From Gammaproteobacteria bacterium (GTDB lineage Bacteria > Pseudomonadota > Gammaproteobacteria > Steroidobacterales > UBA11654): a DNA stretch of 64,000 nucleotides. The DNA lies in assembly GCA_002691465.1 (NCBI GenBank), contig NZHP01000036.1, forward strand, positions 20,116 to 84,115, read 5' to 3'. This document shows positions 3,459 to 25,070 of this stretch, in pieces. The notes under the pieces were generated by a model that did no database searches, had not been told where the DNA came from, and saw only the letters and a list, made by a program, of their open reading frames with translations. How positions within the stretch are numbered: the first letter of the stretch is position 1; the number at the start of each line of letters is the position of its first letter. Position numbers and translations under genes: made by a program.

Positions 3459-6164
3459 TCACTGCGAAATCATTCCGTGACATTTTTTGTATTTTTTACC
3501 TGAACCACATGGACATGGTTCATTCCGTCCAATCTTGTCTTGACCTCTGATAAATGTCTTTGTATCACTCTTCTTTTGTCCCGAATCTGAGGGCTTAAAT
3601 GCTGACCCTTGATTATGTGATAATCTAACACTATCCTTCTTTTGTGACTGTAGATTAACCGATTCAGCATCCTCTTCACCCCTAAATCTAGCTTTTGCCA
3701 ATATCCCAATGGCATTGGTCTTCAACTGATCCATCATGAAAGAAAACATCTCAAATGACTCCCTCTTGTATTCTTGCTTTGGATTTTTTTGGGCATAACC
3801 TCTGAGATGAATGCCCTGACGAAGATGATCCATTGATGCCAAATGCTCTCTCCATTGCATGTCCAGCTGCTGAATCATTATGGCTTTTTCAATCTCTCTC
3901 ATTGGACGCTGGCCTATTGCATTTTCTTTAATACTGTAGTTCTTTTTAAACTCTTGATGTACAACATTCCAAACATTGTCCTCATTGATAGTTTCGTCTC
4001 TTTCTATAATGCTTTCCAAGTCAATATCAATCATGTAGTCATTCAGGAGAGCTTGTTGCAAGCCGTCTAGATCCCATGTTTCTTCCATTGATTCAGGCTC
4101 TATATACTGACTAACCAAATCTTGGATCACTTCCTCGCTAATACCATCAATCATCTCACCTATACTTTCAGCATCTAAAATATCCTTCCTCAACTGATAA
4201 ATTACACTTCTCTGATCATTGGCTACATCATCATATTCCAATAAGTTTTTTCGAATATCGAAGTTGTGAGACTCGACTTTTGTTTGCGCTCTCTCAATTT
4301 GTTTAGTTAGAAGATTGCTCTCGATAGCCTCTTCTTCTTCCATGCCAACTCTGGATAACATTGTTTGTGTTTTCTGAGGATCGCCAAATATTCTCAATAA
4401 ATCGTCGTCCAAGGACAAATAGAATCTGCTCGAACCAGGATCGCCCTGCCTACCAGATCGGCCTCTCAATTGATTGTCGATTCTTCTAGACTCATGACGC
4501 TCTGTGCCAATGATATGCAATCCGCCAGCATCAATAACTTCTTGGTGTCTTTCAGACCATTCTTTTCTAATTTGATCAATATGATCTTTGGAAATACCGT
4601 CACCGTGTGACTTTATCTCTGCATCTAAATTCCCACCGAGAACAATATCTGTTCCTCGGCCCGCCATATTTGTTGCGATGGTCACGGCACCTGGTTTTCC
4701 AGCCTGCGCAATAATCATAGATTCTTTTTTATGTTGTTTTGCATTGAGAACTTCGTGCTTAATTTTTTCTTTCTGCAGAAGTTTTGAAATAAATTCTGAA
4801 TTCTCAATGGACGCTGTTCCCAATAAAACTGGCTGTCCTATCTCTTGCTTCTCTTTGATATCAGTAATGATATTCCTAAATTTACCATCTTGATTTAGAT
4901 AGACAAGATCAGGCATATCTTTACGAATCATTGGCTCATGTGTTGGTATAACGACAACCTCTAATCCATAGATTTGCTGAAACTCAAATGCCTCTGTATC
5001 AGCTGTTCCTGTCATACCAGATAATGTGTTGTATAGTCTAAAATAGTTTTGAAAAGTAATAGAAGCAATGGTCTGATTTTCTTCCTTAATTCTTAGATTT
5101 TCCTTTGCTTCAACTGCTTGATGTAAACCATCAGACCATCTTCTTCCAGCCATTGTCCGGCCTGTAAACTCATCGACGATAATAACTTCACCTTCTTTTA
5201 CAATGTAATCAACATCTTTTTGAAACAGCTTATGAGCCCTAATGGCTGCATTGATATGATGCATCAAACGAATATTTTGTGGATCGTATAAACTTTCCCC
5301 AGTTTTAAGTAAACCCATCCCGTTTAGAATTCTCTCAACACTCGAATGCCCCAATTCTGTGAGATAAATCTGTTTTGTTTTTTCATCAACTGTGAAATCT
5401 TTTGTATCTTCTTCATCAATTGCTTCTTCCAACTTGGGCACAATTGAATTCATTCTCTGATATAGCTCTGTACTATCATCTGCTCTGCCAGAAATGATTA
5501 GGGGAGTTCTTGCTTCATCAATTAATATTGAGTCTACTTCGTCTACAATCGCAAACCCTAAAGACCCTTGAGATTGATTCTCCTTCTCAAAAGCAAGATT
5601 GTCTCTTAAGTAATCAAAACCGAATTCATTGTTTGTGCCATAGGTTATATTGCAATCATATGATTCCTTTCTTTCTCTCGGGTTTTGTTCTGACTTAATA
5701 CATCCAACGGTAAGTCCTAAAAATTCATAGATGGGTTTCATCCATGCAGCATCTCTTTCTGCAAGATATTCATTGACTGTGACGATATGAACAGACTCTC
5801 CTGAAATCGAATTGAGATATGCCGGTAATGTTGAAACGAGTGTCTTGCCCTCTCCTGTTTTCATCTCAGCGATTTTTCCCTGATGAAGCGTTATCCCTCC
5901 AATCATTTGTGCATCATAATGTCTAAGGCCTAATGTTCTTATGGATGCTTCTCTTACAACAGCGAATGCTTCTGGGAGTATTTCATCCAGATCATTATGT
6001 TTTTCATATTTAGACTTTAACTCTTCCGTCTTAGCTAATATTTCTTGATCTGAGAGACTCTTTAAATGATCCTCAAAAAGATTGATCTCATCTACAATCT
6101 TTGAATAATCGGCCAATAGCCTATCATTGCGACTACCGAATATCTTTTTGAATAATTTTTTCAA
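3459..6164 (-). CDS. secA: Preprotein translocase ATPase SecA
   Basis: [29 protein letters not shown]-terminal [13 protein letters not shown]; TTG start. Confidence 0.98.
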
Positions 6165-6281: not shown

Positions 6282-6569
6282 ATGAAGCATATATCAGAGA
6301 TTATAAGAGAAGATTTAGGGTTGAATAGGAAAAATTCAAGCCTCCTCCATAAAAAAACAAAAATATATAAGCATCTTATAGAGAGCCTAAAAGATAAACC
6401 TTGCATAATTGAAAATGCTTATCAAAAGGAAGAAACACTTTATATAGAGTGTAATAGTGCTGAAGAAACAGATGCCTTGAGATATGAAGAAAGAAATATT
6501 AAGAAAATATTATCTAAAATAAATGTCTTTCCAGACAAGATTAAATTCAGAACAAAGGTTGGGAATTAA
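6282..6569 (+). CDS. Small basic protein, probable divergent DciA/DUF721 family
   Basis: Opposite-strand position between lpxC and secA is the usual DUF721/dciA slot; LYIEC.SAE..DALRY..RNI resembles the family motif; size fits a truncated form. Confidence 0.55.
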   Translation: MKHISEIIREDLGLNRKNSSLLHKKTKIYKHLIESLKDKPCIIENAYQKEETLYIECNSAEETDALRYEERNIKKILSKINVFPDKIKFRTKVGN

Positions 6570-7480
6570 GTTTTACCCAATGCAGCTGTCCAATATGATA
6601 TTGGAATTTCCTTTATGTCCTCTTCCTCTACTTCTTCCCAAGCTGAGGAATCAGCGTAGAGTTTCCTGATTAACTTATTATTCAGGTCATGGCCAGATTT
6701 ATAACCATAATATTCACCGACCAAGATATGGCCCATGAGATATAAATCTCCAATAGCATCTAAAATTTTATGTCTAACAAACTCATCCTCAAACCTGAGT
6801 CCATCTTTATTGATGATTGTGTAATCATCGAGGACAATGGCATTATCCAAGCTTCCGCCTAATGCTAGATTATTTGATCTCAATGATTCGATGTCTCTCA
6901 AAAATCCAAATGTTCTGGCCCTTGAAATATGCTCTAGAAAATTCATAGTGGAAAAATCAAAAGTAAAATGAGTTAACTCGTTCTGAATCATTGGGTGCTC
7001 AAATTCAATATCAAATGTCAGGCGGTAACCATCGAATGGTCTAAACTCTGCAAATTTACCATCTTCTTCTACTCTTATATTCTTTTTTATTCTGAGGAAC
7101 TTCTTGGCTGCTAATTGTTCTTCAATGCCCGCTGACTCTATGAGAAGAATGAAAGATGCTGCACTTCCATCCATAATTGGTATCTCGGGGCCATGAAGAT
7201 CAATGTATAGATTATCAATACCAAGTCCCGCCAATGCAGAGAGTAAATGCTCAATAGTCATGACTGAAGTATCATTCTGAGATATTGTGGTTCCAAGATT
7301 TGTATCGGTTACGTTCTCAGAAATAGCATGAACTTCCTTTACCGGAATGGTATCCATTCTCCTGAACCTTATTCCAGAGTTCTCAGAAGCGGGTCGCAAT
7401 GTCATTTGTACCTTTTTGCCGCTGTGCAAGCCAACGCCTGATGTCTCTATGGTTTTTGCTATAGTTCTTTGATGTAACAT
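6566..7480 (-). CDS. lpxC: UDP-3-O-acyl-GlcNAc deacetylase
   Basis: GVGLHSG, TIEHLLSAL, EIPIMDGSA, ISRARTFGF, HKILDAIGDL, SGH. Confidence 0.97.
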   Translation of the reverse strand: MLHQRTIAKTIETSGVGLHSGKKVQMTLRPASENSGIRFRRMDTIPVKEVHAISENVTDTNLGTTISQNDTSVMTIEHLLSALAGLGIDNLYIDLHGPEIPIMDGSAASFILLIESAGIEEQLAAKKFLRIKKNIRVEEDGKFAEFRPFDGYRLTFDIEFEHPMIQNELTHFTFDFSTMNFLEHISRARTFGFLRDIESLRSNNLALGGSLDNAIVLDDYTIINKDGLRFEDEFVRHKILDAIGDLYLMGHILVGEYYGYKSGHDLNNKLIRKLYADSSAWEEVEEEDIKEIPISYWTAALGKT

Positions 7481-7557: not shown

Positions 7558-8790
7558 TTATAGATTTGAAGAAAACCAATTTTGTATTTTTTGGAATAAA
7601 GGTGCTGAGGATTTTTGTTTTACCAAATCAGCTGGCTTAGATTTATATTTTTCGAGAGCATAGAGCAAAAGTCCTGCGCCAGTAGCATTTTCAGGTCCAT
7701 TAATGGATTCAAATGCTCCACTCATCGGTTTGGGATAACCTAATCTAACATCACAGCCAAAAACAGCCTCGGCCAATTCTACAGCGCCATCTAATTTAGA
7801 GGCGCCACCAGTTAGAATGACCCCTGCCCTTAAGCTCTCAAGACTAATCTTACCCACTTCTGTATTAATCACTTCAAATATTTCCTCATACCGTTGCTCG
7901 ACAACCGAAGCCAACACCTTTCTGTCAGTTTTTCTTGCTTCTCGATCACCAACACTCGGAACATCGATTAACTTATCCGTGCCGTTTAGTTTTGAGAGTG
8001 TCGCAGCATGCTTAATTTTGATTATTTCAGCTTCGTCAACGGGTGTTTTTAATTCATGAGCTATATCTTTTGTGACATGATCACCACCAACAGGAATGAC
8101 CTTTGTGGTTATAATCTGACCATCCTTAAAAATTGCAATATCAGTGGTTCCACCACCGATATCAATCAAACAAGCGCCCAATTCTTTTTCGTCTTGCGAT
8201 AGAACGGACATACTTGATGCAAGCGGCTCAAGGACAACTTCTTGGATATCAAGGTCGCAATGATAGAGTGACTTTACAATGTTTTCCTCGGCTGTTCTCG
8301 AAATAGTTACAATGTGAACATCAGCTTCTAGTCTGATTCCTGACATGCCTATAGGTTCTGAAATTCCATCTTGCCCATCAATAACAAAATCTTTCGGAAG
8401 CACATGCAGAATCCTCTCCTCAGATGGAATCTTCATGGCAATGGATGCATCAACTGCTCCATCAATATCTTCTTGTGATACTTCTCCCTCATTGATGCGA
8501 ACAAATCCATGACCATCATAACTTCTGACATGGCTGCCAGCTATGCCTGCAAAAACTGTATTAATATCACATTCTGCAATTCTTTCTGCTTGCTTGATTG
8601 CTTTTCCAATGGAATCCACGGTAGATTCAATGTTGACCACTACACCCTTCTTTAATCCTCGAGAAGGCTCTGTTCCTACTCCAATAATTTTTAGTTCATT
8701 ATCACCGTTGATTTCTGCAATCAATGCTACGATCTTGGATGTTCCAATATCCACAGATGCGATGATTTCACTTGAGCTACTTCTTACCAT
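7558..8790 (-). CDS. ftsA: Cell division protein FtsA
   Basis: DIGTSKI, GLKKGVVVNI, IDIGGGTTD, LTGGAS. Confidence 0.97.
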   Translation of the reverse strand: MVRSSSSEIIASVDIGTSKIVALIAEINGDNELKIIGVGTEPSRGLKKGVVVNIESTVDSIGKAIKQAERIAECDINTVFAGIAGSHVRSYDGHGFVRINEGEVSQEDIDGAVDASIAMKIPSEERILHVLPKDFVIDGQDGISEPIGMSGIRLEADVHIVTISRTAEENIVKSLYHCDLDIQEVVLEPLASSMSVLSQDEKELGACLIDIGGGTTDIAIFKDGQIITTKVIPVGGDHVTKDIAHELKTPVDEAEIIKIKHAATLSKLNGTDKLIDVPSVGDREARKTDRKVLASVVEQRYEEIFEVINTEVGKISLESLRAGVILTGGASKLDGAVELAEAVFGCDVRLGYPKPMSGAFESINGPENATGAGLLLYALEKYKSKPADLVKQKSSAPLFQKIQNWFSSNL

Positions 8791-8798
8791 TTGAATAT

Positions 8799-9557
8799 TT
8801 AGTTTCTTTTCTTAACTGAAAAACCTTCTGTATACCTTAGGTCAATATATTCAATTACTGTCAAATTATCTAATAGAGATTCATCCCATATCATCAAAAA
8901 TCGATCAAATCTCTCTGTGATATTCTCCTTACCAAATCGTATAGTGATATCAGGCCTAATTGTAATGCTCCAAGATCCCTTAAAATCTAGCATCACTTGC
9001 TCTATCAGAATTCCTCTTATAGCTAATTCTTCTTTAAATGATAGATACTTTTCAAAAACTATCTCTTCCTGACCATCTGGTCCATAAAATTCAACCAATC
9101 CGTTTGGTAATGTCTGCTGATTGAGAATAAAGAGAGTGCCTTTTGAGTTCATAATGGACTCACTGTTCCATCTACCAATAATTTGCTCCTCTTCAATATA
9201 GATATTTATTTGATTTGGCCATCGCCTTTCAAGGCTCGCACTTTTTACCCAATTAAATGTTTCAATTTCTTCTTTTAGCTGACTCAAACCAATTTGCAAA
9301 AACCCTTTATTATAGATCTTTGATGAAATGGCGCTCAAATCATCCAAAGATACCCTATTGATTTCGTTCAGATATTGAACCTCAGTAATTTTCTGATTAA
9401 TGATTGAAAATATAGAAAATGTAGTCGCTGACAGAATAGTCAGAAAAATTAACCTCTTAATCATTCCCCTTTTATTTCTTTCTCGATTGGACTTTACCCC
9501 GTAAGAAAATCTATTTTTCCGTTTATTCTTTTTAGATATTTTTGATAGTAATGCCAA
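8799..9557 (-). CDS. ftsQ: Cell division protein FtsQ (start uncertain)
   Basis: Basic N-tail, one TM helix, POTRA WVKSASLERRWP, C-terminal YIDLRY; lies between ddl and ftsA. Confidence 0.88.
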   Translation of the reverse strand: MALLSKISKKNKRKNRFSYGVKSNRERNKRGMIKRLIFLTILSATTFSIFSIINQKITEVQYLNEINRVSLDDLSAISSKIYNKGFLQIGLSQLKEEIETFNWVKSASLERRWPNQINIYIEEEQIIGRWNSESIMNSKGTLFILNQQTLPNGLVEFYGPDGQEEIVFEKYLSFKEELAIRGILIEQVMLDFKGSWSITIRPDITIRFGKENITERFDRFLMIWDESLLDNLTVIEYIDLRYTEGFSVKKRN

Positions 9558-9560
9558 TTT

Positions 9561-10484
9561 CTAACCCGATGATTTTAAAATCTCAAAACATAGTGATTCA
9601 AAATTAATTCCTGCCTCTTTAGCTGACATCGGTACCAAACTATGTGTTGTCATTCCAGGAACTGTATTAATTTCAAGAATTACAGGTGAGCTATCGTCAT
9701 CTAGAAAAAAATCAAGCCTACCCCATCCTTTGATATTAAATAAATTAAATGCCCTCTCACACTCGCTATTGATCGCATTTTCTATTTCTGCATCTAATCC
9801 GCATGGACAAATATATTCGGTTTCATCACTCAAATATTTTGCATCATAGTCATAGAATTCGTGATTTTTTGCTTTGATTTTGATGATTGGCAGTGCTTTG
9901 CCATTCAAAAATGTAGAAGTATATTCTTCACCTTGCATGAATTGTTCAGCGATAATCCAGTCATTGCTTTTTTCTATTTCAGAAAAACAGCTTGAATACT
10001 CTTCTTTATTTTCGATGATATAAATTCCAATGCTTGAACCTTCTGAGCATTGCTTCAACACGAATGGCTCTTTTAATTCTTTACTAATGTTTTCATATTC
10101 AGTGTTTGAATCTACAAGCATAAATTCAGGAGTTTTAAACCCATTAGATTTTAAGATTGATTTGGTAAAGTATTTATTCATCGTAATTGAACAAGTGATG
10201 GGGTCACTGCCAGTATATTTTATATTCAACATATTGAGGATTGACTGCATCTTGCCATCTTCTCCATCAGAACCATGAAGAGCTATCCATGCGTGCGTGA
10301 CTTTTTCTGTTTTTAAAACCTCAATAAAAGGCTCAATGGTATCTATAAGGATTGCTTCAACTCCCTTAGATTTAAGCGATTCGAATACAGCTTTGCCAGT
10401 TATAAGCGATATTTCCCTCTCAGAAGAACTTCCACCATAAAGCACTGCTACTTTTGAATAAGATTTTATTTCATCACTCATCAT
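9561..10484 (-). CDS. ddl: D-alanine--D-alanine ligase
   Basis: GGSSSEREISL, LHGSDGEDG, EGSSIG, FYDYDAKY omega loop, EINTVPG; start moved to the first ATG. Confidence 0.95.
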   Translation of the reverse strand: MMSDEIKSYSKVAVLYGGSSSEREISLITGKAVFESLKSKGVEAILIDTIEPFIEVLKTEKVTHAWIALHGSDGEDGKMQSILNMLNIKYTGSDPITCSITMNKYFTKSILKSNGFKTPEFMLVDSNTEYENISKELKEPFVLKQCSEGSSIGIYIIENKEEYSSCFSEIEKSNDWIIAEQFMQGEEYTSTFLNGKALPIIKIKAKNHEFYDYDAKYLSDETEYICPCGLDAEIENAINSECERAFNLFNIKGWGRLDFFLDDDSSPVILEINTVPGMTTHSLVPMSAKEAGINFESLCFEILKSSG

Positions 10485-11349
10485 GCTCACCAATGATTCT
10501 GACCTCAGTATCCAGGTTTATTCCAAAGCGATCCTTAACAGTATTCTGAATATGATTAATTAGTGTTTCAATATCTTTGGCAGTTGCCTCTTTGTCATTA
10601 ACAATAAAATTTGCATGTTTTTCTGAAACGGCACATCCTCCGATTCTAAAACCTTTTAGCCCAGATCTTTCGATGAGATCTCCAGCATGATTTCCATCTG
10701 GATTCTTGAAAACGGATCCGCATGTATTTTCAGTAAGCGGTTGGTGCTCTATTCGAGAATCCCTCAAGCTCTTTAGCTCTTCCATTGTAGTTAGCCCTTT
10801 ATATGGAAAGATCATCTCGCATGATAAGAACCAGAGTGGAAATGGGAAACTTACTGATCGATAAGAGATAGAAAATTCTTTCGGATCCAAATGATGAATG
10901 TCACCATTACGATCAATAACCTCAACACTTTTAACAAATTCCCAAGTTTCATGGCCAAAACAACCCGCATTCATGGTAAGCGCGCCTCCTATTGATCCTG
11001 GTATTCCAGAAAAAAATGCGGCCGGTCCAAAATTATTCTTTGTTGCATGCATGGCTAATTCAAAACATGAAACGCCTGCCTCTACCTTGCAATTAGATCT
11101 ATCTAATAATTGAATACTATTAAAAGATTTCTTGGTTGAAATTACTGCACCTCTAACACCCCCATCCCTCACTAAAATATTTGTTCCATTTCCTAACCAG
11201 GTGATGCTGCAGTCATTTGACTTTAAAAATTCAGAAAGTTCATCTCGACTATTTGGACTAAAAAATATGTCAGCTTTACCTCCTATTTTCCATGAAGTAT
11301 GACTAGCTAACAGCTCATTTTGAACACAATTTTTTTTAAGGATAGTCAT
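10474..11349 (-). CDS. murB: UDP-N-acetylenolpyruvoylglucosamine reductase
   Basis: HTSWKIGG, GNGTNILV, GIPGSIGGALTMNAG, CGSVFKNP, SEKHANF. Confidence 0.96.
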   Translation of the reverse strand: MTILKKNCVQNELLASHTSWKIGGKADIFFSPNSRDELSEFLKSNDCSITWLGNGTNILVRDGGVRGAVISTKKSFNSIQLLDRSNCKVEAGVSCFELAMHATKNNFGPAAFFSGIPGSIGGALTMNAGCFGHETWEFVKSVEVIDRNGDIHHLDPKEFSISYRSVSFPFPLWFLSCEMIFPYKGLTTMEELKSLRDSRIEHQPLTENTCGSVFKNPDGNHAGDLIERSGLKGFRIGGCAVSEKHANFIVNDKEATAKDIETLINHIQNTVKDRFGINLDTEVRIIGEHDE

Positions 11350-11376
11350 TAAATGGGAGGGCTAATGCCATTATTC

Positions 11377-12501
11377 TTAGCCACTAACTTCATCTGTGTC
11401 TCTCATCTTATAATTTTCGATCACGTCATAAGTAAAATTAACAGTATTTTCAGTTGAATGAAGGAATAGATCATCAAATGCTGATTCACTCATTTTCTTC
11501 AGAATTTTTTTGTCCTCAGAGATTCTTTTGATTGTCTCTGCTAGATGTTCAGATGTAAGATTCTCATTATCGATTAAGACTGTCCCACCTTTCTCTTCTA
11601 AAAAACGGGCATTATAAAATTGATGATTATCCATAGCATGTGGATATGGGATCAAGATTGATGGAAGTCCGGTAGCGCTGAGCTCAGAAACAGTCATCGC
11701 TCCAGCTCTTCCAATAAATAGGTCTGCCCAATCGTATGCTGATCCTACATTTGGATCAAACTTTGATACTTTAGCGTCAATGCCAAGCTTACTGTATGAC
11801 TCTTTAACTTCCTCATAATCTTGCTCTCCAGCATCATGCCTGACCTCTATATCGATGCATGTACTAACAAGTGATAATGCATTTGGAGCGCTCATATTTA
11901 TAGATCTTGCGCCTTGGCTGCCCCCCATTATAAAAACTCTCAGTCTATCTGATTGCTCTCTTTGGTGAGTGCTTTTTTTTAAATCTAAAATATCTTGCCT
12001 TATTGGATTACCCAAGAATTTTAGATCAAATGGAAGACTAAATGGTTTCTCAAACCACCTATATGCACCTGGCAATCCTTGAATCCCAGCTGCAGCTCTA
12101 AAAAAAAGAAGAAATTTATTTACTCTTCCTACTACAGAGTTTTGTTCTTGAATGATCACACACACATCTCTGCCTCCAGCACGACAAATTTCAGATGAAG
12201 CATATCCGCCCATTCCAAGAATCATGTCTGGTTTCATTTCTCTAACAAAATGTTTAACTTCTTTATCTATCCAGAAGCTCGATAAAAATTTTTTGTAAGT
12301 TGGGTAATCTTTTAGTTTTGACGGAAAATATTTCACTTGAAGGTCTTCAGATGCGAAGATCTTCTTCTCTATCTCATTTCCTGTTCCAACAATTAACACT
12401 TGATGCCCATCATTTTCATATTGATGAGCTAAAGCAATTGCAGGGTAAATATGGCCGCCAGTACCGCCAGTGGCAATAATAATTCTATATTTATCATCCA
12501 T
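11377..12501 (-). CDS. murG: Lipid I N-acetylglucosaminyltransferase MurG
   Basis: GGTGGHIYPA, GMGGY, QEQN, GNPIR, GGSQGA, RAGAMTVSE, HQFYNA. Confidence 0.93.
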   Translation of the reverse strand: MDDKYRIIIATGGTGGHIYPAIALAHQYENDGHQVLIVGTGNEIEKKIFASEDLQVKYFPSKLKDYPTYKKFLSSFWIDKEVKHFVREMKPDMILGMGGYASSEICRAGGRDVCVIIQEQNSVVGRVNKFLLFFRAAAGIQGLPGAYRWFEKPFSLPFDLKFLGNPIRQDILDLKKSTHQREQSDRLRVFIMGGSQGARSINMSAPNALSLVSTCIDIEVRHDAGEQDYEEVKESYSKLGIDAKVSKFDPNVGSAYDWADLFIGRAGAMTVSELSATGLPSILIPYPHAMDNHQFYNARFLEEKGGTVLIDNENLTSEHLAETIKRISEDKKILKKMSESAFDDLFLHSTENTVNFTYDVIENYKMRDTDEVSG

Positions 12502-13645
12502 TGGTTCTTAGATTCTTCTTTTGTCTGGGATTTTCATAACCAATTTTTAAGACAATTGCCAATGTAATCAATGTCATTAAAATACTGCTGCTTCCATAAC
12601 TAATCAGTGGCAAAGTTAATCCCTTAGTTGGCAGCATACCCATATTTACTCCCAAATTGATAATGACTTGCATTGCTAACCACAAACCTATCGCCATACA
12701 GAGATAACTCTGAAAAACTCTCTTTGCATTCAATGCCATAAACCCGATTGCAAAGATTCGATATATCAAAAGACCATATAACAATAAAAGCATCGTTGTG
12801 CCGACTAGACCAAGCTCTTCAGCGAATATTGCAAAGATAAAGTCTGTATGCGCTTCTGGTAAATAAAAAAGTTTTTGTAAGCTTTCACCAAGTCCTAAAC
12901 CAAATAAACCTCCAGAACCAATTGCAATCAAAGAATTTGTAAGTTGATAGCCTGCTCCCAAAGGATCATTCCAAGGTTCAATAAAATTCGTAAGTCTGGC
13001 CATTCTATATGGTGCAATATAGATTAAAATTGCGAACGCAGAAAAGAGAAGCAAAACTAAGACGACAAAATATCTCATCTTAAAGCCTGCTAGAAAAAAG
13101 AGACCAGCAGTAACAGATAAAATTATGACGGTTGAACCAAAATCAGGCTGAAGCAATAAAAGGAGGCACGCAGGAATGATAAAAATCATGGGTTTAACAA
13201 AACTCATAAAATTGTCTTTAACATTTTCTTGCTGTCTATAACAATATCCTGCCATATACATCATCAATAACAATCTAGCTGGGTCAATCACCTGAATATT
13301 AGGTAGGCCTGGAATATCCAACCATCTCGTAGATCCATTTACAGTTTTACCTAGTTCTGGAATGAATACAGATAAAAGGAGAAGCAATGCTGTCAGTGCT
13401 AAAAATATTCCTAATTTTTCCCAAAGCTGTGTAGGTATTAAAAATGCTATGAAACCACCAAATAATCCTAGGGATATTGCGAATAATTGCTTATTCACAT
13501 ACTCATATGGGTATCCCTCCTCTTTCATAGATAGAGGCATTGATGCTGAAGCTAGAATTACGATGCCACCAATTAATAAGAATGCAGTAGCTAAGAGGAA
13601 AAGACGATCATATGCTTCGCTTGATTCTATTGATGTGATGCCCAT
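12494..13645 (-). CDS. ftsW: Peptidoglycan polymerase FtsW
   Basis: Multi-TM SEDS protein, LLQPDFGS, YLPEAHTDFIFA, LPTKGLTLPLISYGSS; ATG at 13645 lies 2 bp after the mraY stop. Confidence 0.95.
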   Translation of the reverse strand: MGITSIESSEAYDRLFLLATAFLLIGGIVILASASMPLSMKEEGYPYEYVNKQLFAISLGLFGGFIAFLIPTQLWEKLGIFLALTALLLLLSVFIPELGKTVNGSTRWLDIPGLPNIQVIDPARLLLMMYMAGYCYRQQENVKDNFMSFVKPMIFIIPACLLLLLQPDFGSTVIILSVTAGLFFLAGFKMRYFVVLVLLLFSAFAILIYIAPYRMARLTNFIEPWNDPLGAGYQLTNSLIAIGSGGLFGLGLGESLQKLFYLPEAHTDFIFAIFAEELGLVGTTMLLLLYGLLIYRIFAIGFMALNAKRVFQSYLCMAIGLWLAMQVIINLGVNMGMLPTKGLTLPLISYGSSSILMTLITLAIVLKIGYENPRQKKNLRTNG

Positions 13646-13647
13646 TA

Positions 13648-14727
13648 TTATCTTATTTTGAGACTTGATAAGCCAATCAAGACAAGAAAAACTGTGATGA
13701 TCCAAAACCTTACAATTACTTTGGGTTCAGCCCATCCTTTTAATTCAAAGTGATGGTGGATTGGAGCCATATTAAAAATTCTCTTTCCTCTCAGTTTAAA
13801 TGAACCAACCTGAAGAACCACTGATAAAGTTTCCACGATAAAAATACCGCCCATGATAGCCAATACCAACTCCTGTTTGACGATCACAGCAATCGTTCCA
13901 AGTATTCCACCAAGAGATACAGCGCCAACATCCCCCATAAAGATCTGAGCTGGATATGCGTTGAACCACAAAAATCCCAACCCAGCACCTGAGATGGCAC
14001 AACAAAAAACAAAAACTTCCCCCGCATCTTGAAGAAAAGGCAAATCCAGATACTCAGCAAAGTTAAAATTGCCAGTCACATAAGCAAAAATTCCAAGAGC
14101 AATCGCAATCATTGAAACAGGCATGATTGCTAAACCATCCAATCCATCGGTTAGATTAACTGCATTGCTTGAGCCAACAATCACAAAAATTGCAAAGGGA
14201 AGAAAGAGCCAACCTAAATCAAGGCGAAAATTATTTGTAAAAGGGATCAGTACTTCTGAGCTGAGTACACTGCTCCCTTGTCCCAAAAGATAATAAGTGG
14301 ATGAAGCTGCGACAATAAACTGCAAAATTAATTTTGTTTTCGCAGACATGCCTTTTTTACTTTTTTTAAGCTTTGTGAAATCATCAATAAATCCGATCAT
14401 TCCAAAAGAAATGATCGAAGCAATAAGAACTAAATTATAAACATTACTCAAGTCTGACCATATAAGAACACTGACAACAATCGAAAGGATAATCATGAGT
14501 CCGCCCATTGTGGGAGTCCCGCCCTTTGAAGAGTGACTAGATGGGCCATCGGTTCTGATTGTCTCTCCAATTTTTTTGCCCTGAAGTGCTGCTATGATCT
14601 TGGGTCCAAATAAGAAGGAAATAATGAGTGCTGTTAATGCAGCTAGAATACCCCTAGTTGTAATATAGGTAAAAGCATTAAGTGGAGAAAACCACTCGAT
14701 CAAATTTTCAGAAAAATATAAAAACAT
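13648..14727 (-). CDS. mraY: Phospho-MurNAc-pentapeptide transferase
   Basis: KGGTPTMGG, GFIDD, NAVNLTDGLDGL, FMGDVG, APIHHHFELKGW. Confidence 0.97.
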   Translation of the reverse strand: MFLYFSENLIEWFSPLNAFTYITTRGILAALTALIISFLFGPKIIAALQGKKIGETIRTDGPSSHSSKGGTPTMGGLMIILSIVVSVLIWSDLSNVYNLVLIASIISFGMIGFIDDFTKLKKSKKGMSAKTKLILQFIVAASSTYYLLGQGSSVLSSEVLIPFTNNFRLDLGWLFLPFAIFVIVGSSNAVNLTDGLDGLAIMPVSMIAIALGIFAYVTGNFNFAEYLDLPFLQDAGEVFVFCCAISGAGLGFLWFNAYPAQIFMGDVGAVSLGGILGTIAVIVKQELVLAIMGGIFIVETLSVVLQVGSFKLRGKRIFNMAPIHHHFELKGWAEPKVIVRFWIITVFLVLIGLSSLKIR

Positions 14728-14789
14728 GATTACTCCCTTAATGTTTCCTAAAAATCATTGTCGTTAGATTAACACTTATCACATTAAAA

Positions 14790-16460
14790 TTATTTATCAT
14801 CTGGAGCTATTCCCAGAAGCCTAAGAGTGTGTGAACCTATTTCAGAAAAAACAGGCGCTGCGACTTGTCCTCCATAATATTCTTTCCCTCCTGGCTCATT
14901 AACAATGACTGCAATTGCTATCTTTGGTTTTGTCAGTGGTGCGACACCAACAAATAAAGCATTGTGTTTATTTGAAGAGTAGTTTTCAGCAGCAATTTGT
15001 GCTGTACCAGTTTTACCGCCAATACGATATCCATTGATTTTTGCTCGAGGAGCTCCTCTTATAGCGACATTTTCAAGCATTGAAAGTATCTCATTAGAAG
15101 TTTTTTCTGAGAGAACGCGATCACCATCTAATTTTTCATCTTCAATCTTTTTCAAAGTAATGGGTTTCCTGATTCCACCATTCGCTAAAGCTGCATATGC
15201 CCCTGCAAGTTGGATCAGGCTGATGTCAACATTGTACCCATATGATAGAGAAGCAATCATACCCTCTCTCCATCGACTACATTGATAGTCCAAAGTGCCA
15301 GACGCTTCACCTGGAAAACCAGAAGATGTGACTTGACCAAATCCAAGACTATTAAAGAATGTGAATAAATCACATGGGTCAATCTCCAAGGCAATTTTTG
15401 AGATTCCTGTATTGCTCGATTTTATCAGCACTTCTTCCATTGTTAGCAAACCATGATCTCTAGGGTCTTTAATTGTTCTGGCACCAATTTTATATGCAGA
15501 TGTATCTACAACAGCTTCTGGCTCAAAAATCTTATAGTTTAGAGCTGCGGCCATTGTCAGTGTTTTAAAAGTTGAACCAGGCTCAAACTTATCTGTGATT
15601 GCTTTATTTTTATATATTTTTGGAGTTCTATTTTTTGAAAAAGAAAGATCTCCAGCTGGCTGATTTGAAATCGCTAGAATCTCACCAGTAGTGACATCCA
15701 TTACAACAACAGACCCTCCCTTTGCATTATTTTTTTCAATTCCTGACTTCAAAGCTTGATGAGCAAAATGTTGTATCTTTATATCTATGCTTGAATAAAA
15801 ATCCTCGCCTATTAGGGGATCACTAATGATCTCTATATCAGCAATACTATTTTGATGCACATCTGTCAGTGTTTTCTTCAAACCATTCGTTCCAGAGAGG
15901 CCCTTGTTTAAGGCATACTCTAAACCCTCTTGCCCGCTGCCCTCGCTATCGGTAAACCCCAATAAATGAGATGCAGTTTCTCCGCTGGGGTAAAACCTCT
16001 TATAAAAGGTCTCAAGCCATATATAATTTCCAAAATTGTCTCCACGAATAATTTCTACATCTGATTTCCTTAATTCTCTCTTAAGCACAAAATATCTTTT
16101 GCTGCTCCTCTTTCTTATTTCTGCATCAATCTCTCTTGCAGGCTTGGAGATTATTTTTGATAGTGAGTTCAATAGCTGAGGGTAGCTGTCCTTTATAAGC
16201 AGAGTTTTTGGATCAACAATCAATCTATACACGGGGATACTCACCGCGAGTGGGATGCCATTTCTATCATAGATGCTCCCTCTGTTTGCAGGTATATTTT
16301 TATATTTAATATGCTTCTTGTCACCTTCTGTATTAAGAAAATCAGACTCAAGGTACTGCAAATAAAAAGAACGAGCGAATAGGCCTAGAAGCATGGCTGA
16401 TATCAGACATAATAAGAATATAAACCTTGATTTAATTAATCCTTTCTCAGTTTGCTTCAT
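14790..16460 (-). CDS. ftsI: Septal transpeptidase PBP3
   Basis: RGSIYDRNG, EPGSTFK (SxxK), KSSN (SxN), GKTGT (KTG). Confidence 0.95.
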   Translation of the reverse strand: MKQTEKGLIKSRFIFLLCLISAMLLGLFARSFYLQYLESDFLNTEGDKKHIKYKNIPANRGSIYDRNGIPLAVSIPVYRLIVDPKTLLIKDSYPQLLNSLSKIISKPAREIDAEIRKRSSKRYFVLKRELRKSDVEIIRGDNFGNYIWLETFYKRFYPSGETASHLLGFTDSEGSGQEGLEYALNKGLSGTNGLKKTLTDVHQNSIADIEIISDPLIGEDFYSSIDIKIQHFAHQALKSGIEKNNAKGGSVVVMDVTTGEILAISNQPAGDLSFSKNRTPKIYKNKAITDKFEPGSTFKTLTMAAALNYKIFEPEAVVDTSAYKIGARTIKDPRDHGLLTMEEVLIKSSNTGISKIALEIDPCDLFTFFNSLGFGQVTSSGFPGEASGTLDYQCSRWREGMIASLSYGYNVDISLIQLAGAYAALANGGIRKPITLKKIEDEKLDGDRVLSEKTSNEILSMLENVAIRGAPRAKINGYRIGGKTGTAQIAAENYSSNKHNALFVGVAPLTKPKIAIAVIVNEPGGKEYYGGQVAAPVFSEIGSHTLRLLGIAPDDK

Positions 16461-16737
16461 GTTTTTTTAATAAATTTATTTTCCTAGAGTCAGGAAGTAT
16501 CATTCCGGCTTTTTCTGTAGCCGTCCCTCCAATTTTTTGTCCCGACGAAAATGCTGAATAATCTAGCTGAAGTTCCCTCCACTCCATTTCGAGCCTTTGA
16601 GTTTCTGAGACAATAATTTGATATTCCTGAAATAGATTCCTTTTGTTAAAGTGCAACTGAACCTCATATAAGCCTGATAAGCAAACAGTCAGATACCATA
16701 AAAAGAGCCATTTATAGTTAATATTTTTTGTCTTCAT
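16447..16737 (-). CDS. ftsL: Cell division protein FtsL
   Basis: Short TM plus coiled coil, EWRELQLD, AGM.LP; lies between rsmH and ftsI. Confidence 0.8.
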   Translation of the reverse strand: MKTKNINYKWLFLWYLTVCLSGLYEVQLHFNKRNLFQEYQIIVSETQRLEMEWRELQLDYSAFSSGQKIGGTATEKAGMILPDSRKINLLKKHEAN

Positions 16738-17651
16738 TTTATTCTCTCAACTACTCTAAGCACGGCACTCCTTGACCGTGGATTGAGATTTATTTCTTCA
16801 TCGCTCGGCTTTATAGCCTTAGATACGAGCTTAAATGATGAGTCATCTGCTAGGTTTGGAAGCTTAGATAATCTTGGGTCTCTTCGAGAATGATCCCTGA
16901 AGAATCGTTTAACCATTCTATCCTCTAATGAATGGAAACTAATGATGCAAGCCCTTCCACCTATTTTTAGATGTTTTGAAATGAAATCCAAGAGTAACTC
17001 TAGCTCTTCGAGTTCATTATTGATGAATATCCTTATTGCTTGAAATGTTTTTGTTGCTGGATGCTTCTTATCATTAAATCTTCTCGGAACTTCTTCAAGG
17101 AGAATTTCAGCAAGTTCTTTTGTTGACTCGATTTTAATATTCTTTCTAGCCTCAACAATTGCTTTAGCAATTCTTTTTGCTTTTTTTTCTTCACCATATT
17201 TCCAGAGAACGCTTGAAATTTCTTTTTCTGAAGCATTGCTCAACCAACTCGATGCGTCTTCGCCTATATTTTGATTCATTCTCATATCAAGAGGACCGTC
17301 TTTCATGAAGCTGAAACCTCTTTTTGGATTATTTAACTGATACGATGAAACTCCAATATCAGCAAGTATTCCATCATAATTATTTGTACTAAATAATTTA
17401 TCCAGTTGACTAAAACGAGCCTGATGGATGCTGATTCGCTGCTCAGATTTAAATTTTGATTTCAAATAACTTATAGCTTCGGGATCTTGATCTGATGCAA
17501 CGAGTGAGCCATCAACTAATTGCTCTAAAATAGCAGAAGAGTGTCCTCCAAAGCCTGATGTCGCATCTAGATAATTCCCATTTCTTCTAATTAAAAGGTG
17601 CTGAATAACTTCCTCAGTTAATACTGGGATATGAAATGATTCATTGATCAT
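16734..17651 (-). CDS. rsmH: 16S rRNA m4C1402 methyltransferase
   Basis: HIPVL, DATSGFGGHS, DIGVSS, GPLDMRM, ISFHSLEDR, NPRSRSA; start moved to ATG 17651. Confidence 0.96.
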   Translation of the reverse strand: MINESFHIPVLTEEVIQHLLIRRNGNYLDATSGFGGHSSAILEQLVDGSLVASDQDPEAISYLKSKFKSEQRISIHQARFSQLDKLFSTNNYDGILADIGVSSYQLNNPKRGFSFMKDGPLDMRMNQNIGEDASSWLSNASEKEISSVLWKYGEEKKAKRIAKAIVEARKNIKIESTKELAEILLEEVPRRFNDKKHPATKTFQAIRIFINNELEELELLLDFISKHLKIGGRACIISFHSLEDRMVKRFFRDHSRRDPRLSKLPNLADDSSFKLVSKAIKPSDEEINLNPRSRSAVLRVVERIK

Positions 17652-17665
17652 GGTGTTTGCCGAAA

Positions 17666-18841
17666 TCAAAAATCTAGGTCAGGATCTTGTCTTCTTAAAA
17701 AACGAGGTATATCCAGTAACTTTTCGTCATGCTCATCAGGTTGCTTTGTTTTTTCTAGGCTTTCGAACATGTCTTGGGTTGTTTGCTGTTTCAATCCATT
17801 TCTAGCTGTAATAGGACGATCCAAATCATCAAAGGATCTTTCTCGATCTTGCTCTTTAGTATCATCTGTTCTGAGAGCATTCAGACCTGTAGCAACCAAT
17901 GTCACTCTTATGCTGTCATTCTCCAAATCGCTTGATAATGCAGTACCAACAATCACTTTTGATTTTTCGGCTGCATAGCTCTGAGCAATGTCGCCAATTT
18001 GGTTAAACTCCGAAATCTCTAGATCCGTTCCTACTGTGACATTAAGCAGTATTCCGGAGGCTCCCTCCAAATTGATCTCTTCCAATAAAGGGCTCTTAAC
18101 TGCTTTCTCAATGGCAAGTCTTGCTCTATCCGGCCCCGATGCAATTGCTGAGCCCATAATGCTTCGCCCTTTTTTGCCCATCACTGCTTTTACATCAGCA
18201 AAATCAAGATTAATAACTCCTGGAACAGTTATTAATTCAGCAATACCCTGAACTGAATTTAGAAGAACATCATTTGCCGCATCAAATGCTTTAAAAACTG
18301 TAATTTTTTTACCCAATGACTCCAAACGATCATTCGGAATAACAATTAGAGAGTCAACATGCTCCTCAAGACTCCTTAGCCCCTGTTCTGCGAGAGAAGA
18401 TCTTTCGTCACCCTCCCACTTAAATGGTTTGGTAACAACGCCAACTGTTAAAATCCCCATCTCTTTTGCAATTTTTGCAATCACTGGGCTGGCTCCTGTG
18501 CCAGTGCCACCTCCAAATCCTGCTGTTATGAATAACATATCGGTATCAGAGAGTACTGATTTTATAGATTCGGCTGCCTCTTCAGCAGAGGCTTTTCCAA
18601 TCTCTGGATTCATTCCAGCGCCTAATCCTTTTGAGGTTTCAACTCCAAGCTGAATCTTTTCTTCAGCAGGTGAGGATGAAAGATCCTGTGTATCTGTATT
18701 TGCACAAAGAAAATTTACACCTTGAATACCTTGACTGATCATATGATTGACTGCATTTCCGCCTCCTCCACCAACACCAATGACTTTTATATTGGCCCTT
18801 TGGCTATCTGTATCCATTAATTCAAAAGCAAATTCACCCAT
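17666..18841 (-). CDS. ftsZ: Cell division protein FtsZ
   Basis: IKVIGVGGGGGNAV, GGGTGTG tubulin motif, INLDFADV T7 loop, C-terminal peptide LDIPRFLRRQ. Confidence 0.98.
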   Translation of the reverse strand: MGEFAFELMDTDSQRANIKVIGVGGGGGNAVNHMISQGIQGVNFLCANTDTQDLSSSPAEEKIQLGVETSKGLGAGMNPEIGKASAEEAAESIKSVLSDTDMLFITAGFGGGTGTGASPVIAKIAKEMGILTVGVVTKPFKWEGDERSSLAEQGLRSLEEHVDSLIVIPNDRLESLGKKITVFKAFDAANDVLLNSVQGIAELITVPGVINLDFADVKAVMGKKGRSIMGSAIASGPDRARLAIEKAVKSPLLEEINLEGASGILLNVTVGTDLEISEFNQIGDIAQSYAAEKSKVIVGTALSSDLENDSIRVTLVATGLNALRTDDTKEQDRERSFDDLDRPITARNGLKQQTTQDMFESLEKTKQPDEHDEKLLDIPRFLRRQDPDLDF

Positions 18842-18852
18842 ATGTATTCTGC

Positions 18853-19299
18853 CTAAATTGAAATATCTCTCAGTTGTTCGGTTAGTGCGAGATCACTTTT
18901 TTTCAGCCATAAATCTCTCGACTGATTCCATGATTGATAGTTCCATATTTCAAAGCGTTGGCCTTGGCCTATGAACATGGCTGATTTTTTTATGCCTGAA
19001 AATTCTCTTAATTCTACCGGTACTAAGATCCTATTGTGACTATCTAAAACTAACTCACTGGCATGCCCAACCATTAAGCGTTGAAGCATCCTGCTAGATT
19101 TATCAAGTGAAGGGAGCTCCATAATTGTTTTTTCAATTTTGAGCCAAATCTTTTTTGGATATAAAAGTAGACATTGATCAATATCAATAGTGCATATGAG
19201 CTCATTAGAGCCATATTTTGAGAGTTCCGATCGATACTTTGTAGGAATGGATATCCGTCCCTTAGTATCTAAACTAATTTTATTCAATCCTCTAAACAT
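18853..19299 (-). CDS. mraZ: Transcriptional regulator MraZ
   Basis: MFRG start at 19299, two DxxxR motifs (DTKGR, DSHNR), FEIW. Confidence 0.93.
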   Translation of the reverse strand: MFRGLNKISLDTKGRISIPTKYRSELSKYGSNELICTIDIDQCLLLYPKKIWLKIEKTIMELPSLDKSSRMLQRLMVGHASELVLDSHNRILVPVELREFSGIKKSAMFIGQGQRFEIWNYQSWNQSRDLWLKKSDLALTEQLRDISI

Positions 19300-19329
19300 T
19301 ATGTTTATCAGTAAGATCAAGCGTTTTAT

Positions 19330-19344
19330 CCCACTTTTTACCAC
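19330..19344 (-). promoter_or_regulatory. MraZ-binding boxes (GTGG repeats at 10-bp period)
   Basis: Minus strand reads GTGGTAAAAAGTGGG between the promoter and the mraZ start, matching the known GTGG-type MraZ operator repeats. Confidence 0.7.
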
Positions 19345-19353
19345 TAATAGACA

Positions 19354-19381
19354 ACTATAGTTTATATACAAATGATGTCAA
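19354..19381 (-). promoter_or_regulatory. Sigma70 promoter of the dcw operon
   Basis: TTGACA (19381-19376), 16-bp spacer, TATAGT (19359-19354), directly upstream of the MraZ boxes. Confidence 0.65.
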
Positions 19382-23816: not shown

Positions 23817-25070
23817 TTAGTCAATTCTTCTAACTTTTGCACCTATATTTAATAGCTTTTCTTCAATATTCTCATATCCACGATCCAAATGATAAATGCG
23901 ATCAATGATTGTCTTTCCATCTGCAATCAAACCTGCAAGAATCAATGCTGCAGACGCTCTCAAATCTGTTGCCATTACCTGCGCAGAATTTAATTTTGAA
24001 ACTCCTCTTACAATTGCAGTATTTCCATCAATTCCAATATTGGCGCCCATTCTTTTGAGCTCCAATATATGCATAAATCTATTCTCAAAAATGGTCTCCT
24101 TTATCTTAGAGTCACCATGTGCAATGGTATTTAACACCATCAGTTGCGCCTGTATATCTGTTGGGATTCCTGGATACGGGTTAGTTTCAAAACTAATGGG
24201 AAGAATCGTATCTGGTCCTTTCAAAAATAAAGAATCTTCAAATATCTCAAACTTTGCTCCACATTGCCGAATCAACTCGATGGGTTGTTGTATATGTAAA
24301 GGATTGATATTTTCAACCTTAAGCTCTCCTTGGGCTATGATTCCAGCGATAATCATTGTAATTGCCTCAATTCGATCTGGAATAATTTCAATTTCAGCGC
24401 CTTCAAGATTCTCTACCCCCTCTATTGATATGAAATCTTCTCCGAGACCTTCAATTTTTGCTCCCATAGAATTCAGAAGTTCGCCAAGTTGAACAATCTC
24501 TGGTTCGCAAGCCGCATTGCCAATCTCTGTTTCTCCTTCGGCTAAGGTGGCAGCCATCAAAATATTTGCAGTTCCAGTCACGCTCTTTTTAGGAAAAGAA
24601 TATGTTGAGCCTATTAATCTTTCGGCAGAAGCTAATATATATCCGTCTTTAATTTCTATTGATGCTCCTAATTTTTCTAACCCCTCTATATGAAGATCAA
24701 CTGGTCGAGCGCCAATTGCACAACCTCCAGGCAATGAAACTTTTGCCTCTCCATGTTTTGCTAGTAATGGTCCAAGGACCATAATTGATGCCCTCATAGT
24801 TTTGACTAGTTCATATGATGCAAATTTTGACTCAATTTCACTCGCATTAAATGTAAAAGAACCTTTATGGTTTTTTTTTGTCTTCATCCCCATAGAATCT
24901 AATAGAGTAATCAATGTTTTGACATCAGCCAGATCAGGAATACCATTTAGAGTAATATTATGATCCGATAGAATGCACGCGGTCATCATAGGCAATGCGG
25001 CATTTTTAGAGCCTGAAATTTTCACGCTCCCACTAAGAGGATATCCGCCGTTAATTACTAACTTTTTCAA
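23817..25070 (-). CDS. murA: UDP-GlcNAc 1-carboxyvinyltransferase
   Basis: SGSKNAALP, MRASI, LPGGCAIGARP (catalytic Cys), DLRASA, HLDRGY. Confidence 0.97.
   Translation of the reverse strand: MKKLVINGGYPLSGSVKISGSKNAALPMMTACILSDHNITLNGIPDLADVKTLITLLDSMGMKTKKNHKGSFTFNASEIESKFASYELVKTMRASIMVLGPLLAKHGEAKVSLPGGCAIGARPVDLHIEGLEKLGASIEIKDGYILASAERLIGSTYSFPKKSVTGTANILMAATLAEGETEIGNAACEPEIVQLGELLNSMGAKIEGLGEDFISIEGVENLEGAEIEIIPDRIEAITMIIAGIIAQGELKVENINPLHIQQPIELIRQCGAKFEIFEDSLFLKGPDTILPISFETNPYPGIPTDIQAQLMVLNTIAHGDSKIKETIFENRFMHILELKRMGANIGIDGNTAIVRGVSKLNSAQVMATDLRASAALILAGLIADGKTIIDRIYHLDRGYENIEEKLLNIGAKVRRID

Follow-up and report, generated by a model that had tools for sequence, protein, structure and literature searches.

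Loss of murC, murD and murE from most of a gammaproteobacterial family that keeps Mpl and MurF

In Gram-negative bacteria such as E. coli, Pseudomonas and Psychrobacter, peptidoglycan fragments are recycled along a route that leads through AmpG, NagZ, AmpD and LdcA to Mpl, and then on to MurF. Tannerella forsythia, which lives in dense biofilm, is an auxotroph for N-acetylmuramic acid (MurNAc) that lacks murA and murB and scavenges from other bacteria, while the Chlamydiae and insect endosymbionts, which are obligate intracellular, have reduced or mosaic peptidoglycan pathways. MurC, MurD and MurE count as essential in every bacterium that has a wall, and they are antibiotic targets. The stretch of DNA studied here (the window, 64,000 nucleotides in full, from contig C15 of the gammaproteobacterial assembly G000) contains a division and cell wall (dcw) cluster from which all four Mur ligase genes are missing, and murC, murD and murE are missing from nearly all genomes of its family, which keep Mpl and MurF. 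As in T. forsythia, one building block of the peptidoglycan of a wall-bearing bacterium would be scavenged from other bacteria, which in our case is a prediction; what T. forsythia lacks is the sugar, whereas this marine family has kept the genes for the sugar and lacks those for the peptide (murC, murD, murE and the dap genes). With the intracellular bacteria, whose reduced or mosaic pathways are treated in PMC9928106, the family shares the loss or outsourcing of single Mur steps together with the retention of the division-linked wall machinery, although those bacteria live inside host cells.

G000 is a 1.40 Mb assembly of 41 contigs which is 84% complete. It was compared with the other members of a family sample of 20 genomes (G000 to G019, of which 17 belong to the genus of the window, G000 included, and 3 to a second genus). 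The family genomes are approximately 1.4-1.6 Mb in size, and seven of the 20 are at least 90% complete. Three outgroups from the same order (G022, G030 and G031) were used for the dcw order, and 400 genomes of the class Gammaproteobacteria served as a wider sample. Genes were named using Pfam domains and NCBIfam models with curated cut-offs. The conserved dcw order is mraZ-rsmH-ftsL-ftsI-murE-murF-mraY-murD-ftsW-murG-murC-(murB)-ddl-ftsQ-ftsA-ftsZ. The order in the window is mraZ-ftsZ-rsmH-ftsL-ftsI-mraY-ftsW-murG-murB-ddl-ftsQ-ftsA-lpxC, on the minus strand; the four ligases are gone, ftsZ is displaced and now separates mraZ from rsmH, and the rest of the order is unchanged. No Mur ligase domain was found in this cluster with Pfam, and the three gaps leave no room for remnants, which agrees with what the initial annotation had read from the sequence. 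Its gap lengths were likewise recovered from the coordinates of the open reading frames (ORFs) and the sequence. The usual murE-murF slot is an empty spacer of 62 bp (14728..14789) between ftsI (14790..16460, minus strand), which codes for a transpeptidase of the penicillin-binding protein 3 type (Pfam Transpeptidase and PBP_dimer, with family-level matches only in NCBIfam), and mraY (13648..14727, minus strand; TIGR00445 425 bits, cut-off 192). The murD slot is reduced to a junction of 2 bp (13646..13647), which separates mraY from an ATG at 13645 that is the likely start of ftsW; the longest ftsW ORF (12494..13705, minus strand; TIGR02614 378 bits, cut-off 338) begins with a TTG at 13705. 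The murC slot is an empty spacer of 27 bp (11350..11376) between murG (11377..12501, minus strand; Pfam GT28 N- and C-terminal domains, TIGR01133 242 bits, just below the cut-off of 250) and murB (10474..11349, minus strand; NF010480 339 bits, cut-off 259). At these three places G030 has murE and murF, murD, and murC, respectively. The outgroups all have the usual order, with the ligases detected or room for them, and end in ftsA-ftsZ-lpxC. The compact order, including the position of ftsZ, is identical in the eight relatives whose contigs span the cluster (G003, G015, G006, G011, G010, G002, G014 and G007), and is consistent in seven more with shorter contigs reaching past secA; two further loci hold secA only.

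Outside the cluster, Mur_ligase_M and Mur_ligase_C each match the same three genes of G000, which are murF, mpl and folC. The murF gene (G000:C8:390-1826, minus strand; TIGR01143 301 bits, cut-off 289) stands alone beside fabB-fabA and a glycosylase-like gene, near a contig end. On C5, mpl lies between a Lon-domain gene and the pair formed by rnd and a small membrane protein, and folC is on C1; no salvage genes were found among the neighbours of mpl or of murF. None of murC, murD and murE was found in G000 with Pfam Mur_ligase_M and Mur_ligase_C, with the murC model, or by a six-frame hmmsearch. For the latter, we made profiles of MurC (40 sequences), MurD (4) and MurE (4) from relatives and ran them on stop-to-stop frames of at least 40 aa, where they matched only the Mpl, MurF and FolC frames. 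Of the ordinary ligase genes whose presence elsewhere in the genome would, according to the initial annotation, refute its reading, murF was recovered and the other three were not; the fusion that it had also considered is not borne out, no Mur domain being found with Pfam in any other G000 frame. The search of relatives that it had called for gave the same picture, with Mur_ligase_M matches of the MurF, Mpl and FolC types only in 18 of the 20 family genomes, G000 included, which means that murC, murD and murE are missing from 17 of its 19 relatives. Mpl is present in all 20 genomes and MurF-type matches in 19, the exception being G009 (77% complete); MurF in the relatives is assigned from Mur_ligase_M, only the copy of G000 having been scored against NCBIfam. 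The murC model scores over its cut-off in two family genomes, G007 and G014, and in 19 of the 21 genomes from other families of the order (a tally that includes the unpublished G035), with MurC cut by contig ends in the remaining two. Six of the seven family genomes at 90% completeness or more have none of the three genes.

In the two exceptions, murE, murD and murC are adjacent outside the dcw cluster and are followed by dapF, a row that faces a convergent row of dapB, dapA, dapD, lysA and an AstE/AspA-like gene. This block of about 10.4 kb has a MOSC gene at one end, and is flanked by four small genes on one side and by an aldo-keto reductase on the other. In G000, G006 and G010 the flanks lie 0.6-1.2 kb apart with nothing of the block between them, and the absence of murC, murD and murE is therefore a mapped presence/absence difference rather than missing data. 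G002 has neither the block nor its flank gene, and thus gives no reading on block loss. The genes for diaminopimelate (DAP) and lysine synthesis follow the same distribution. The DapB, DapA, DapD, LysA, DapF and MurD proteins of G007 gave no tblastn match in G000, and dapF was found with hidden Markov models (HMMs) in the same two family genomes of 20 as murC. The dapA and lysA HMMs had no match in G000, G006 and G015, while both genes are present in G007; in G017 they found a weak paralogue of dihydrodipicolinate synthase only. The joint relocation suggested at the outset thus holds for G007 and G014, where the three ligases are together next to DAP/lysine genes, and does not for the other 18 of the 20 genomes, in which they were not found.

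No foreign donor of the block was found from identities in the class sample, from G+C content or from the MurC tree. The G+C of the block is 0.319, against 0.313 for its flanks, and the best-matching listed MurC proteins of the class sample (with the unpublished G334, G346, G180 and G078 included in the tallies) are 40-46% identical to that of G007, none of them a close donor. In the MurC tree, a very long branch, of 3.49, leads to the G007/G014 pair outside the clade of other orders (aLRT, approximate likelihood ratio test, 99); the tree does not place the pair with respect to the same-order rows, and long-branch attraction may have drawn it towards the Mpl outgroup. Between G007 and G014, the identities are 70% for MurD, 73% for MurE and 78% for MurC. 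These values are low, but dcw genes reach similar levels (62% for MurG), and they tell neither for nor against relaxed selection on the block. A SecA tree was built with 18 family rows and three outgroups, leaving out G013, which has no SecA, and G008, in which SecA is split. The second genus is sister to that of the window, and inside the latter G007 and the pair of G002 and G014 are together sister to the other 12. The block of murE-murD-murC and dap genes is now in one subclade only. We infer that the ligases left the dcw cluster in the ancestor of the family; for the block, two losses and one loss with one regain are equally parsimonious. Two further features of the block were observed. 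The murD frames of G007 and G014 are open over 459 and 455 codons and the murE frames over 498 and 499 (L013 9026-11902, minus strand; L014 2115-4992, plus strand), and they contain no ATG, GTG or TTG until codon ~84 in murD and ~139 in murE, while ATA and ATC codons near the frame starts are conserved, which suggests non-canonical starts or weak expression. The AstE/AspA-type desuccinylase-like gene between lysA and dapF (L013 5675-6802, plus strand) is found where a DapE function is expected, and may be a non-orthologous substitute for DapE.

Mpl is the only MurC-like ligase left in G000. The protein scores 467 bits with TIGR01081 (cut-off 389) and 247 bits with the murC model, whose cut-off is 335. 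Compared with solved structures, it gives 338 bits with the Mpl structure 3hn7 and 301 bits with 3eag, and at most 159 bits with MurC. Its GTHGKTT, EADEYD, NLEFDHADIF and DDFAHHPT motifs align with those of 3hn7 over residues 1-400, as is expected for a three-domain Mur ligase, and the P-loop, RR and FAHH motifs are kept. The protein is intact, at 446-452 aa, in 17 of the 19 relatives, while in G017 the gene is interrupted by a run of N. All family Mpl proteins form one clade that branches largely as the SecA tree does, and judging from this topology Mpl is vertically inherited in the family. Das et al. (2011) proposed that the peptide is bound in Mpl by the C-domain residues R357, R358, F374-H377, E402-T407 and S483-G485. 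With S483-G485 outside the mapping, 10 of the 12 mapped positions are kept; the other two, P403 and R404, are replaced by L, F or I and by A, respectively, in 18 of 18 family proteins. The Psychrobacter enzyme has a strong preference for the DAP tripeptide, with activities given in PMC3060825 of 260 per min with this peptide versus 5.9 with the tetrapeptide and 5.3 with the pentapeptide, and of 0.7 per min with L-Ala and 1.4 per min with L-Ala-D-Glu. A multi-pass membrane protein of 186 aa without a Pfam match is encoded 9 bp upstream of mpl (L018 6768-7328, plus strand, G000:C5), and an ORF in the same position was seen in G007, G012 and G019.

Partial versions of this gene content occur elsewhere in the class. 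In the wider sample, 22 of the 400 genomes have no MurC match at 1e-60, and five of them were examined (G213, G218, G226, G372 and G114). G114 has a truncated MurC, and the other four have none; Mpl scores over its cut-off in G213, G218 and G226 (97-99% complete), while the Mpl-like gene of G372 stays below it. The four lineages with an Mpl-type gene and no MurC (G213:C11, G218:C19, G226:C2 and G372:C7) are represented by genomes that are 91-99% complete. Of these, G213, G226 and G372 keep MurD, MurE and MurF. The dcw cluster of G213 has the standard order minus murC, and that of G226 reads mraZ-rsmH-ftsZ-ftsI-murE-murF-mraY-murD-ftsW-murG-murB-ddl-ftsA-lpxC-secA, the one empty slot being that of murC. 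MurD was matched at 1e-30 (murD model, genomes at least 90% complete) in 393 of the 400 class genomes, the seven without it being G000, three genomes of 0.3-0.4 Mb, G218, G134 and G270. G218 keeps Mpl, a MurE-like gene outside a dcw context and a MurF-type gene, while G134 and G270 have two Mur-fold matches each, which may merely reflect an unassembled dcw cluster. Only in the family of the window did we see all three of MurC, MurD and MurE lost while Mpl and MurF remain. The MurE-like ORF of G218 (390 aa; L106 5283-6919, plus strand, G218:C4) is abutted upstream by an ORF of 155 aa and matches only residues 115-487 of G007 MurE, at 43% identity, which is above the other MurE compared; this gene may be split or without an N-domain.

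From this gene content, we consider it probable that the family has lost de novo synthesis of the stem peptide, and that Mpl and MurF build the wall from imported peptide fragments. Such a salvage fits best with the joint loss of murC, murD, murE and DAP synthesis, with their linkage in the two exceptions, and with the retention of Mpl, MurF, Ddl and AmpG; among the proposals made in the initial annotation, it is the most speculative one, a non-canonical stem-peptide route with an Mpl-type candidate, that has fared best. G000 keeps MurA, MurB, Ddl, MraY, MurG, FtsW, FtsI, Mpl, an AmpG-family permease, NagZ and one MurNAc-L-Ala amidase. UDP-MurNAc would be made de novo via MurA and MurB, and a DAP-containing stem peptide would be imported from the cell-wall debris of other bacteria. 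Mpl would ligate the imported peptide onto UDP-MurNAc in one step and MurF would add the D-Ala-D-Ala made by Ddl, and the later steps, with MraY, MurG, FtsW and FtsI, would be the ordinary ones. On this reading, the cell would be obligately auxotrophic both for lysine and for wall peptide that contains DAP. The proposed chemistry is identical to that of the known recycling shunt, with which the family also shares an Mpl orthologue over the cut-off, an AmpG-family permease, NagZ and a MurF acting after Mpl. However, the known shunt is dispensable and runs beside MurC, MurD and MurE, whereas here it would be the sole route and be fed from outside, in a family where LdcA is missing, AmpD is doubtful and the EPRSNT motif of Mpl is altered. 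The permease is found over the cut-off in 19 of the 20 family genomes (TIGR00901 463 bits, cut-off 350). NagZ (NF003740 395 bits, cut-off 207) and a single Amidase_2 protein per genome are present in all five genomes tested. G000 also has an Opp/Yej-type operon (G000:C9:66017-71123, L025 8018-13124) adjoining mnmE-mnmG, which codes for a lipoprotein family-5 binding protein, two permeases and a fused double ATPase. By gene make-up, it resembles YejBEF-YepA of Agrobacterium tumefaciens, described as a muropeptide ATP-binding cassette (ABC) importer for wall fragments (PMC9790009), and it differs from that system in that G000 also has AmpG and that the operon is absent from 8 of the 20 family genomes. 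By its binding-protein family, a peptide ABC importer is present in the other 12. An anticorrelation between importer and dap-mur block was suggested by five genomes, and was not upheld in the 20, several block-less genomes being without importer.

A number of observations weigh against salvage by Mpl and MurF. All genomes used are incomplete single-cell or metagenome assemblies, and in G016 the mpl gene has two frameshifts (L102, G016:C3), which could be an assembly error or real decay; the identity is 42% after the first frameshift versus 68%, and this genome also has no murC, murD and murE. The predicted peptide-site motif EPRSNT has become E(L/F/I)A(S/C)NT in 18 of 18 family Mpl proteins, while of 18 Mpl proteins taken from genomes with MurC as well, 16 keep EPRS, and hence the substrate of the family Mpl may not be the canonical tripeptide. 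Since the change is common to G007 and G014, it predates the loss of murC, murD and murE. LdcA, which trims the tetrapeptide to the tripeptide, was found over the cut-off (Peptidase_S66) in none of the 20 family genomes. The sole Amidase_2 protein scores 92 bits where the AmpD cut-off is 143 and has a hydrophobic, signal-like N-terminus, which makes it look AmiD-like, so that the step which follows AmpG and NagZ in the cytosol has no clear enzyme. The importer is missing from eight genomes, among them the block-less G010 (91% complete). No alr was found in five genomes, in which there is only a YggS-like frame of 229 aa (G000:C2:10615-11205), and with Ddl kept this leaves the source of D-Ala unexplained. 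Lastly, the four lineages outside the family which have an Mpl-type gene and no MurC indicate that Mpl-type enzymes may stand in for MurC, and not only serve in salvage. As for glutamate racemase, murI was found in none of the 20 family genomes, and since G007 and G014 keep MurD, the source of their D-Glu is likewise unexplained.

One other explanation is an artefact, with murC, murD and murE present in the 16% of the genome that was not assembled, or with a misassembled dcw contig, as the initial annotation had allowed. While the completeness and the 41 contigs of G000, and the position of its murF near a contig end, would be compatible with this, the same three-gene set is found in 17 of the 19 other family assemblies, and the assemblies of G000, G006 and G010 cover the site of murE-murD-murC known from G007 and G014 and show it to be empty. 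The recurrence of the compact order in all eight spanning relatives speaks directly against misassembly, and we regard the artefact explanation as effectively refuted. The gene-content facts themselves, meaning the losses of the ligases and of the DAP pathway and the retention of Mpl and MurF, are firm. A de novo route of a non-canonical kind has more to recommend it. The altered Mpl would here act as a MurC-like or short-peptide ligase, and enzymes without the Mur fold (ATP-grasp or other) would finish a stem peptide that possibly contains no DAP. The family-wide change at the peptide site would fit such a role, as would the genomes in which an Mpl-type gene without MurC accompanies MurD, MurE and MurF (G213, G226 and G372) or MurE- and MurF-type matches without MurD (G218), the lack of LdcA and of a clear AmpD, and a D-amino-acid metabolism which, without alr and murI, is already atypical. 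However, G000 has no further Mur-ligase-fold gene, and no candidate enzyme without that fold was identified, ATP-grasp and nonribosomal peptide synthetase-like genes not having been enumerated. Without the DAP/lysine pathway, the cell would still depend on import for a diamino acid, and MurF and Ddl are kept, as would be expected if the acceptor were a tripeptide. We hold this route to be unlikely.

The cells might also not be free-living but attached to, or dependent on, one partner, bacterial or eukaryotic, which supplies wall precursors directly. The coinciding dependencies (the lysine/DAP pathway, alr and murI are all missing), the genome sizes of ~1.4-1.6 Mb and the 0.3-0.4 Mb genomes among those without MurD in the class sample would be in line with such a life. 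On the other hand, G000 keeps the respiratory bc1 complex and the full division and envelope machinery (Pfam), and its close relatives are recorded only as assemblies of 'uncultured gamma proteobacterium' or 'Gammaproteobacteria bacterium'. Dependence on a single partner appears to us somewhat less likely still than the non-canonical de novo route, and salvage of peptide fragments by Mpl and MurF remains the reading that we prefer.

More tentatively, and with slightly less than even confidence, we propose that this marine family is an obligate stem-peptide auxotroph with Mpl as its essential entry point, and that it stands at the end of a graded series in streamlined Gammaproteobacteria, in which Mpl is found without MurC, then without MurC and MurD, and then without MurC, MurD and MurE. 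If this is true, the textbook Mur pathway would have a recurrent alternative in stem-peptide assembly centred on Mpl, and Mpl, elsewhere a dispensable recycling enzyme, would be essential in some organisms. A family with normal lipid II and division machinery but no MurC, MurD and MurE would be a natural exception to their supposed essentiality. Neither bacteria with only Mpl and MurF, nor the loss of exactly MurC, MurD, MurE and DAP synthesis with Mpl and MurF kept, were found described in a full-text literature search (supplements and most subscription journals being outside its scope). Auxotrophy for the stem peptide and for lysine would also be a concrete and testable reason for resistance to cultivation. 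Peptidoglycan-derived D-amino-acid material is a pool in marine dissolved organic matter, to which the growth requirement would be tied, and dissolved cell-wall debris would then be a growth-limiting shared resource in the sea. The altered peptide site, together with the lineages having Mpl without MurC, raises the question of what the true substrates of Mpl-type enzymes are.

The remaining genes of the window considered here are all on the minus strand. Outside the cluster, an intact murA (23817..25070; TIGR01072 540 bits, cut-off 393) codes for the UDP-N-acetylglucosamine enolpyruvyl transferase. The first dcw gene is mraZ (18853..19371; Pfam MraZ), and between it and rsmH (mraW, 16734..17669; Pfam Methyltransf_5) is ftsZ (17666..18841; Pfam Tubulin and FtsZ_C), which would usually follow ftsA; ftsL (16447..16737; Pfam FtsL) comes after rsmH. 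Beyond murB are ddl (9561..10493; NF002378 353 bits, cut-off 243), whose D-Ala-D-Ala ligase supplies MurF, ftsQ (8799..9557; Pfam POTRA_1 and FtsQ_DivIB_C) and ftsA (7558..8790; Pfam FtsA), followed directly by lpxC (6566..7480; Pfam LpxC) with no ftsZ between them, and then by secA (3459..6164; Pfam SecA domains), the marker used for the species tree. A displaced ftsZ was also observed in the unrelated small-genome lineage G226, where it is found between rsmH and ftsI.

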